The position numbers and the translations under genes are program-made. Below, in pieces: positions 52,275 to 53,784 of a stretch of 64,000 bases of DNA. How positions within the stretch are numbered: the stretch's first letter is position 1; each line of letters begins with the position of its first letter. This DNA comes from Octopus sinensis (lineage: Eukaryota): NCBI RefSeq assembly GCF_006345805.1, contig NC_043012.1:14260001-14324000 (forward strand). Direction: 5' to 3'. The notes under the pieces were generated by a model. That model saw only the letters and a program-made list of their open reading frames with translations, was not told the origin of the DNA and did not search any database.

Positions 52275-52858
52275 ATGAAAAACTATAAGGTCTTTCTTAC
52301 GCTGTAGACAGACGATGATACCCATTCACAGGAAAAAACTATGAGAAAATTTTAAATTAATGAGATAGTGTTTTCTTTCAACGAATTATAAGAACATGTT
52401 GTGTAAACATTCAATCTACTTTGCAGAGTATGGCTAGACTATTTGTCTCCTAAAACGTATACTTGACATTTTAAATAATCCAAAAATTGATATGTAATAC
52501 GCCGTTAATTAATTCCTTAATAATCCATGTTTTTACTATTATGCAAGCGAGACAAAATTTAACTCTACACATGTTTATATACACTACACAAAAAACATTA
52601 GCTAATAATCTGTCTGTGAAAAGAAGATGGGTTCACTTGTCTCCGTGATTGTCTGGGAAGACAAAAGGGGAAATCTAACTGCTAAGCATTTTTTTATCCA
52701 AAGAGATATCATCAGTGATGTAACCACTTGGTTCATGCTTTAAAGCATGTTAAATTATATTTTTCTTAGAATGCTTTATTCAGCACTTTACTTTTGCGTA
52801 AAACGCTTTGTGATTTTTTTATATATGCTTTTGTACGCGTTTATATATATATATATAT

Positions 52859-53058
52859 AACGGGAAGCTTTATGAAAATAAACAAAAGACGAAGGCAGAT
52901 GGAGTACAAACAAACAATTGTATTAGTATGGCGCTCAGGAATATAAATAAAACAAGTCTTTTACGTTTCGAGCCTACGCTCTTCAACAGAAGGATACACA
53001 GAAAAGAAACACGGAGAGAAACAAGGAGAGAAAAAAAAATGCGAATCAACATGGCGAT
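52859..53058 (-). mobile_element. Hammerhead-bearing element H1, full length, core CUGUUGA
   Basis: Minus strand 52957-52994 reads tcctt-CTGTTGA-a-GAGC-gtag-GCTC-GAAAC-GTA-aaaga. (TA)n on both sides. Confidence 0.75.
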
Positions 53059-53149
53059 CATATATATATATATATACTGGAGTAAACACATAAATATGAA
53101 ACAAGGTGGAAAAAAAGAGTACTCAAATACCGGGGGTAGAGTAATATGT

Positions 53150-53312
53150 TTTATTTAAAAGCAGCAGAAATTCAACAAAACCTGTTACTCGGAGTTTCAC
53201 GTTCCCGTTCGTCGGACAGTTTTTGTTAAAATTTTAACAAAACTGTCCGACGAACGGGAATGTGAAACTCCGAGTAACAGGTTTTGTTGAATTTCTGCTG
53301 CTTTTAAATAAA
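53150..53312. ncRNA. Near-perfect ~160-bp palindrome with a hammerhead motif on each strand
   Basis: Plus strand 53243-53280 reads ctgt-CCGACGA-acg-ggaa-tgt-GAA-ACT-ccg-AGT-A-acag. The mirror copy on the minus strand (53182-53219) has a perfect acg/cgt stem II. Confidence 0.75.
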
Positions 53313-53523
53313 GTATATATATATATATACATTCAATAATGAGGGTGAATAAAATTATAGATATCAATTCAATAATACCCTTATTTTAACACCGAGCGAC
53401 CTAGCACAATAGACCGGGATACAAATTCATATTTATCCGTAAATATAAGAGAGCCAACTTTGAATATGTTAACTCTAGTGCTAGATAAGGCCACATGTAA
53501 GGGTCTGATTAATTATATTGACA

Positions 53524-53602
53524 AATGTTGCTGACGAATCATAGACAATTATGTAAGTGTAATCTGCATATTTTGTTAATGAGGAAACAATTGTACAACA
53601 TT
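53524..53602 (+). ncRNA. Minimal type I hammerhead ribozyme motif
   Basis: Perfect 7-bp stem I aatgttg/caacatt, core CTGACGA, stem II tcat/atga, GAAAC-aatt-GTA. Predicted cleavage after 53595. Enclosed by a ~50-bp inverted repeat (~53435-53484 / ~53698-53747). Confidence 0.85.
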
Positions 53603-53742
53603 AATCCATTATTTAGTTGTATTTCAATTTCATTGCGTTGATTGTAGTGCTATTTCTATGTGGAATTATCGTTGGCGACTATACCGGTGGAGCTATTTCT
53701 AGCACTAGAGTTAACATATTCAAAGTTGGCTCTCTTATATTT

Positions 53743-53784
<42 letters not shown>

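Follow-up and report, generated by a model that had tools for sequence, protein, structure and literature searches.

Three unrelated hammerhead-bearing elements resembling ends of Penelope-like retroelements, arranged in one (TA)n run of an octopus cadherin intron

Introduction

Penelope-like retroelements (PLEs) leave insertions with an inverted 5'-truncated copy, a palindromic junction and a tail at one end (Craig et al. 2021, PMC8557442; Arkhipova 2013, PMC3846280), and template jumps have been proposed for them (PMC3846280). PLEs of the Neptune, Naiad and Hydra clades are described as preferring (TA)n for insertion, and those of the Hydra clade also carry hammerhead ribozymes (PMC8557442). 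Two PLE hammerheads may also lie on opposite strands at a distance of 100-700 bp (Cervera and de la Pena 2014, PMC4209133), and the same source reports no cleavage by solitary minimal PLE motifs and little by dimers. In an Anolis PLE, reverse transcription starts 111-118 nt into the ORF, the hammerhead cut site is at +26, and insertion in vitro does not need hammerhead cleavage (PMC11167929). Changes in the hammerhead core have been characterised as well: an A6C ribozyme cleaves at <0.1 per min, and with U4C, cleavage is much slower in vitro, although a viroid tolerates this change (PMC3088659). Among plant elements, SaTar arrays have been explained by microsatellite targeting (PMC5907723). 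More general background is given in PMC6962438, PMC8969392 and PMC13282606.

Here, we analyse a block of three elements, E1, E2 and E3, in a window of 64,000 nucleotides from Octopus sinensis (contig NC_043012.1). The window is the whole stretch of DNA studied, and all coordinates refer to it. An original prediction had described the block as three different hammerhead elements stacked in one (TA)n tract, each having reached the same microsatellite independently.

Results

Layout of the block

The block reads (TA)9-E1-(TA)8-E2-(TA)8-E3-(TA)18 over 52842-53783 of the window (Table 1). This is the arrangement that had been predicted, with element boundaries moved by 1-2 nt. It lies within a 5.4-kb cadherin intron, and its end is 485 nt from the start of the next exon at 54269, in agreement with the predicted distance of about 500 bp. 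The exon translation is identical over 33/33 residues to the host protein (P0010), which has 12 Pfam cadherin repeats, and four further plus-strand exons of the host gene were found near 2.0, 39.0, 48.8 and 61.6 kb.

The three elements are mutually unrelated, as had also been proposed. Local alignments of E1 with E3 and of E2 with E3 are at the level of shuffled sequences, and the only part common to E1 and E2 is a 20-nt pyrimidine patch, matched by 1 of 200 shuffles (45 pairs tested, 200 shuffles each). No recognisable ORF is present in E1, E2 or E3.

Several other repeats occupy the window. A 1.7-kb degenerate AT array (47855-49554) surrounds a 54-nt cadherin exon (48832-48885), and inverted repeats of ~190 nt at 33533-33722 and 34509-34707 (92 %) probably delimit a non-autonomous DNA transposon. 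Two related LINE fragments with reverse transcriptase (RT) homology, at 16464-18663 and 57679-58999, agree to 93 % along 458 nt of their 3' ends, and a mariner-like remnant lies near 15004-15619.

Table 1. Coordinates in the window of the block, its parts, the neighbouring host exon and the relatives of E1. H17 is the predicted cleavage nucleotide.
Feature	Position	Strand	Remarks
(TA)9 tract	52842..52859	.	3' junction of E1
E1	52860..53060	-	U-rich, 201 nt, probable solo PLE pseudo-LTR / 3' end; 3' end adjoins (TA)9
E1 hammerhead	52957..52994	-	Minimal type I; core CUGUUGA (A6U), bulged A, H17 52962
(TA)8 spacer	53061..53076	.	Between E1 and E2
E2, whole element	53077..53313		
E2 tail	53077..53149	-	73-nt 3' extension, only on left (minus-sense) copy
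E2 head-to-head inverted pair	53150..53313	.	82-nt arms, no spacer
E2 hammerhead, minus copy	53182..53219	-	Core CCGACGA (U4C), H17 53186
E2 hammerhead, plus copy	53243..53280	+	Host sense; H17 53276, sequestered in hairpin
(TA)8 spacer	53314..53329	.	Between E2 and E3
E3, whole element	53330..53747		
E3 inverted short copy	53330..53487	-	~50-nt arm (53437-53485) and ~105-nt tail to (TA)8
E3 main copy	53488..53747	+	With hammerhead; tailless end at (TA)18; right arm 53698-53746
E3 hammerhead	53524..53602	+	Canonical core CUGACGA, H17 53595
(TA)18 tract	53748..53783	.	3' of E3; then (ATAG)20 array at 53805-53883
Host exon	54269..54367	+	99 nt, 33 aa = residues 116-148 of 1494-aa protein
Second E1 copy (E1b)	11373..11529	-	Within (CA)n(TA)n run of abundant SINE-like repeat; absent from three paralogous repeats
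Third E1 copy	2621..2800	-	3' end on (TA)8
E1-related element	18830..19038	+	Canonical core CUGAUGA; flanked by (TA)16 and (TA)8

The elements resemble the ends of Penelope-like retroelements

E1, E2 and E3 look like terminal (pseudo-LTR or 3' end) fragments of PLEs. The original prediction had recognised the hammerheads, the inverted arms and the (TA)n flanks and had overlooked the PLE-end anatomy that they form; hammerheads, inverted copies, tails and a preference for (TA)n have all been published for PLEs. Both E2 and E3 contain an inverted 5'-truncated copy in head-to-head orientation, with a tail on one copy only. In E2, the joined copies form a near-perfect palindrome of 164 nt (53150-53312; 97.6 %), with a single substitution and a single indel between its arms; the minus-sense copy reaches the left tract through its tail, and the plus-sense copy is tailless. 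These two differences, together with the tail, would argue against the hairpin being an assembly artefact. The copies of E3 are arranged in the same way, the minus-sense one tailed to the left tract and the plus-sense one tailless, and its two arms are identical at 49/49 positions and separated by 212 nt. Each of these two elements is single-copy in the window. The tails, 73 nt in E2 and ~105 nt in E3, exceed the published 30-40 bp, and the combination of a one-sided tail with tailless ends would be accounted for by two RT start sites, as in the Anolis PLE (PMC11167929).

At the tail boundary of each element (53150 in E2 and 53437 in E3), the tailless copy ends where the tail starts, at a short AT-alternating stretch. 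Microhomology with the (TA)n target is possible at these two places.

Since no Penelope protein was found, we infer PLE membership from RNA and DNA anatomy. No PLE RT or GIY-YIG motif was detected with hand-written patterns in the six frames of the window, nor in the three fragments, as expected for truncated ends. Pfam searches of 9 chosen ORFs among the 173 listed gave two LINE-type RT fragments and a weak mariner HTH, and no GIY-YIG. A full-length copy, in which a direct partial-tandem pseudo-LTR would flank an ORF, is absent from the window. Four short block motifs had no match in the Craig et al. supplement (PMC8557442), and the octopus Naiad consensus ends provided there did not match the block by eye. 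The block sequence was matched by none of 72,556 plasmid and 50,697 phage records, one E2 motif and one E1 motif had no exact match in a prokaryotic genome collection, and a bacterial promoter/terminator scan was uninformative. Our search of the open-access literature returned no description of these families or, for PLEs, of such stacks.

Four hammerhead-like motifs, one of them with an intact core

Four type I hammerhead-like motifs are located within 646 bp (52957-53602), and the cut positions originally predicted for the two plus-strand motifs were obtained again. The second E2 motif is an inverted duplicate of the first, which leaves three independent motifs in the block. The claim of four motifs, with a hammerhead in each element, therefore stands as to their number and their excess over shuffled sequences; three of them count as independent, and the published PLE hammerhead consensus is matched at every position by 0/4.

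The motifs were detected with two descriptors, both composed after the motifs had been seen. Descriptor A had 5 matches in the window, compared to a mean of 0.32 and a maximum of 2 in 60 block-wise dinucleotide shuffles; it finds E1 and both E2 motifs and misses E3. Descriptor B had 8, compared to a mean of 0.275 and a maximum of 2 in 40 shuffles; it finds E2 twice and E3 and misses E1. Three of its matches fall in the block, where at least two were obtained in none of 1000 shuffles. An initial descriptor, run without a shuffle control, gave 7 matches in the window and missed E1 and E3. Across the 64-kb window, Rfam gave no match at gathering score, and the 53 matches that the block produced at E up to 10 included no hammerhead family. 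The top ones, miRNA hairpin models on the E2 palindrome, were rejected, all being below their own gathering scores.

An intact core (C3-U4-G5-A6-N7-G8-A9, G12-A13-A14, U16.1-H17) was found in one of the four motifs, that of E3, with A6U in E1 and U4C in both E2 motifs. The E1 motif has a 4-bp helix II closed by G-C and a 4-nt palindromic helix III; the third pair of its helix I is mismatched in the block copy, and the copy at 11503 has a helix I of 5 bp. Its U-rich flank, its core with a bulged base, its G-C-closed helix II and its palindromic helix III agree with the metazoan PLE consensus, whereas position 6 departs from it, in all three E1 copies. Helix II of the E2 motif has 3 bp closed by A-U, and helix III is a 9-nt palindrome. 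E3 combines a 7-bp helix I with a 46-nt helix II, which has an A-G mismatch at the closing pair, and an 8-nt palindromic helix III. The bulge/G10.1-C11.1 signature is absent from the E2 and E3 motifs. In 3/3 elements, the hammerhead is near the 3' end, 38-152 nt upstream of the (TA)n junction, and is off consensus at one position or more.

The cost of adopting the hammerhead fold was estimated with a model that works without tertiary contacts. On either strand, the E2 motif sits in the second-transcribed arm of the 82-bp hairpin, and the forced hammerhead fold is predicted to cost 71.0 and 77.6 kcal/mol in context and 73.7 kcal/mol in nascent plus-strand RNA. The corresponding penalty is 7.9 kcal/mol for E1; for E3, it is 2.8 kcal/mol alone, 4.7 in the nascent transcript and 8.1 in context, and for a canonical motif at 60646, it is 3.0-4.5 kcal/mol. 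With a modelled penalty of about 74-78 kcal/mol, the cleavage ends that had been expected at 53276 are not supported, and cleavage there appears very unlikely; at 53595, weak cleavage may occur. The hammerheads of the block are probably inactive here.

Other hammerhead-like motifs occur in the same window. The best-formed one, at 60640-60842 (+), has a canonical core, a 6-bp helix I and a 5-bp helix III and is oriented in host sense; (TA)24 follows after 149 nt and the next exon after ~900 nt. It is a better candidate for cleavage than any motif of the stack. An inverted pair at 63238-63430 (-) and 63735-63960 (+) belongs to another hammerhead family with a long helix II, and one of its copies stops at (TA)n while the other runs on as a tail. 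An element at 20393-20781 (+) lies between two (TA)n tracts; its core, at 20488, is canonical, and its helix III is a 12-nt palindrome. Its neighbour at 19723-20071 is an old inverted-arm element with a degenerate minus-strand hammerhead at 19884 and (TG)n and (TA)n flanks. The sequences at 57231-57582 and 22392-22543 form one hammerhead family; at 57.2-57.6 kb, the repeats enclosed by its copy are (TTG)n and (AAT)n, not (TA)n. At 51280-51310 (-), a degenerate hammerhead has a canonical first half and an altered G12, with no (TA)n near downstream. Within 64 kb, the introns of a single gene contain ~15 hammerhead-like motifs from several families, which suggests that the genome is very rich in such relics.

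E1 is separately mobile and ends on (TA)n

E1 is a separately mobile unit. Its identity is 94 % to the copy near 11372 (E1b) and 83 % to the copy at 2621, and neither of these has E2 or E3 alongside. The block is thus not one unit in all copies, at least as regards E1, and the possibility that it is one composite wherever it occurs, raised with the original prediction, does not hold for this element. All three E1 copies have a common 3' end on (TA)n and variable 5' ends, that is, a fixed 3' end with variable 5' truncation.

The empty site of E1b is shown by 3/3 aligned paralogous repeats in the window. The occupied site has 9 TA units with one substitution, compared to 2-3 units in the empty paralogues, and no (TA)n is present 5' of E1b, a combination that a pure target model does not predict. 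E1b with its empty-site paralogues is the best local evidence for targeting, better than the stack.

The E1-related element at 18830-19038 (+) has a 5' start that resembles that of E1, suggesting a defined unit of ~200 nt.

(TA)n adjacency in the window and the expected frequency of stacks

Fifteen hammerhead-like motifs, some degenerate, were listed by hand from the scans of the window, 11 of them outside the stack. A (TA)5+ tract is found <=300 nt downstream in 6/11 of the outside motifs, compared to 0.175 of random positions (p = 0.006), and <=250 nt downstream in 5/11, with a background of 0.154 (p = 0.018). Three of the six (TA)n-positive outside motifs belong to one family group (E1 or its relative). 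In a separate tally of 10 motifs, (TA)n lies within 200 nt of the cut site in 5 (background 0.125, p = 0.004). The other five of the 11 outside motifs are not near (TA)n, and two of them flank (AAT)n/(TTG)n. The distance from the cut to (TA)n is 93-111 nt in 6 motifs and ~150 nt in 2; five cleavage positions and two core positions were hand-placed within a few bases, which leaves the distance thresholds unaffected.

The idea that independent families prefer (TA)n therefore draws support from the solitary E1 copies on (TA)n, the E1b empty site and the 6/11 outside motifs. The independence of E2 from E3 is not part of that support, each being single-copy in the window.

The stack itself had been put forward as the strongest local evidence for a shared targeting mechanism. 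When 8-10 TA-adjacent insertions were distributed over 27-28 pre-insertion tract loci, all tracts being equal, the chance of at least three insertions at some locus was 0.06-0.13, and when each insertion added a target, a pile of three had a probability of 0.23-0.42; both values apply to a window that was chosen because the stack was seen there. With a simulated chance of 0.06-0.42, the stack does not carry the weight it had been given.

Discussion

The block is probably the result of three serial insertions of dead, non-coding PLE ends, from different families, into one (TA)n run, with the hammerheads as passengers. A PLE GIY-YIG endonuclease would nick AT-rich repeat DNA, and the RT would copy the element RNA from one of two sites ~40-250 nt downstream of the hammerhead and halt early. 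In E2 and E3, a second, inverted copy would be made in the same event, one copy being tailed and the other tailless, and E2 and E3 themselves would have arrived separately. Since each insertion leaves (TA)n on both sides, the site would remain a target, and later elements would settle beside earlier ones rather than inside them. The hammerheads would have been inherited from the donor elements.

A different relation between tract and element, in which the (TA)8-9 run was made or duplicated by the insertion machinery and the tract is partly a product, seems to us unlikely. It could arise through a copied UA tail, telomerase-like addition or a fixed target duplication of 16-18 bp. Tracts of 8-9 units make up 5/8 of the 3'-junction tracts and 4/44 of the others (Fisher p = 0.002), in a post hoc test for which 3 of the 5 come from the stack and from which 58 tracts of the AT block at 47.8-49.6 kb were left out. 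The 9 interrupted units of E1b, compared to 2-3 in three empty paralogues, point in the same direction. However, the other junctions have 5, 6, 18 and 24 units, and microsatellite tract length mutates quickly through slippage. Furthermore, (TA)n is found on both sides in 4/6 of the elements inspected, as insertion into a run predicts.

The clustering at 8-9 units, the run of E1b and the shared polarity of the tail-bearing ends are compatible to some degree with a target duplication of fixed size, with the addition of tails or with template jumping. We consider it rather improbable that this is a genome-wide phenomenon. In that case, a self-renewing target would be common to many unrelated PLE families with ribozymes: each insertion would lay down or duplicate a fixed (TA)8-9, so that co-oriented, non-nested arrays would form far above chance, some perhaps by template jumping. 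Under this scenario, the core variants (A6U in E1 and possibly U4C in E2) might be protein-assisted or non-cleaving recognition modules, and the arrays would be an animal retroelement counterpart of the SaTar arrays of plants and would preserve the geometry of PLE nicking as a natural record.

It is more doubtful still that the block came as one composite, either by template jumping between different element RNAs in one event or as a copy of an E2+E3 or E1+E2+E3 unit that already existed at another place. This would fit the polarity of the three tail-bearing 3' ends, all on the minus strand, the two equal (TA)8 spacers inside the stack and the template jumps proposed for PLEs (PMC3846280). Against it, E1 is seen twice without the others, a polarity shared by all three has a chance of 1 in 4, and a second copy of any junction is absent from the window.

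There is little probability that the elements are monomers of non-LTR retrozymes, which have circular-RNA intermediates, rather than PLE ends. Their size of 200-400 nt, low GC content, type I hammerheads and absence of an ORF would suit such monomers, as would the similar 5' ends of E1 and its relative at 18830, both ~200 nt long. However, retrozymes are defined by tandem units each with a hammerhead, and no such array of 150-400 nt units occurs among the 72 tandem-repeat rows of the window, whereas inverted copies with one-sided tails are PLE features. Retrozymes have been argued to derive from PLE pLTRs (preprint 10.64898/2026.07.22.740005), so the two classes grade into each other.

A reading of E2 and E3 as TA-targeting MITEs or foldback DNA transposons of the SaTar kind, with hammerhead-like strings by chance, is very improbable. 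They have long inverted repeats and (TA)n flanks, and modular arrays of unrelated elements with terminal inverted repeats linked by (TA)n are published for plants (PMC5907723), but the repeats here are not terminal, lying 73 and ~105 nt in from the left ends, internal and one-sided, E1 has none, and the hammerhead motifs exceed shuffles.

Least probable of all is that the host kept the cluster to cut or regulate the cadherin pre-mRNA: two motifs are in host sense, 674 and 993 nt upstream of the exon, and E3 has a canonical core with a 7-bp helix I, but the plus-strand E2 motif is predicted to be locked in its hairpin as early as the nascent RNA (73.7 kcal/mol). In E3, the closing pair of helix II is mismatched, the monomer helix III has 2 bp, and the window contains no second copy for dimer cleavage. 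Similar motifs are also scattered over this gene; of the 15 listed, 7 are sense and 8 antisense. The block is accordingly unlikely to be of importance for the cadherin gene.

Read as serial insertions of PLE ends, the block is a tidy instance of known PLE behaviour. How the PLE enzyme cuts and primes, which the literature consulted calls open, might be read from the equal length of the (TA)8 spacers.

Comparison with known systems

The pseudo-LTR hammerheads of PLEs with an endonuclease (PMC4209133) share with those described here their type I form, either minimal or with a palindromic helix III, a mostly solitary occurrence and an origin in truncated elements. They also occur as many families in each genome and as pairs on opposite strands at 100-700 bp, and their expected activity is weak. 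In contrast, A6U (3/3 E1 copies), U4C and a helix II of 46 nt are absent from the available part of the alignment in that paper, and no link to an ORF was seen for the motifs of the block.

Neptune, Hydra and Naiad PLEs (PMC8557442) have (TA)n targets, 5' truncation, inverted copies and a one-sided tail, like the elements of the block, and Neptune and Hydra also have hammerheads near the 3' end. The Naiads differ in being without canonical hammerheads, and the tails are longer here; placement in one of these clades would rest on protein. Rows of unrelated families in one tract, as seen in the octopus intron, are not described for these PLEs in the available parts of that work. The Poseidon PLE of Anolis (Frangieh et al. 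2024, PMC11167929), whose hammerhead is protein-assisted, similarly has tailed and tailless ends, there from two RT starts, AT-rich cleavage and a similar distance from cut site to end. Its pLTR overlaps the start of the ORF, whereas in the block, the sequence past the motifs is rich in U and contains no recognisable ORF.

Non-LTR retrozymes (Cervera and de la Pena 2020, PMC7229834, and the preprint cited above) are likewise short, non-coding and low in GC, with type I hammerheads and ties to PLE pLTRs. They consist of tandem direct repeats of 150-400 nt (PMC7229834), whereas the block has inverted repeats and degenerate motifs in place of tandem repeats. The closest counterpart to the arrangement itself is found in the SaTar elements of guayule and rice (Valdes Franco et al. 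2018, PMC5907723), in which unrelated elements follow one another in linear arrays without nesting, with (TA)n between them. SaTar elements are plant non-autonomous Mutator-like DNA transposons with terminal inverted repeats, whereas the array described here appears to be built of ribozyme-bearing retroelement ends in an animal.
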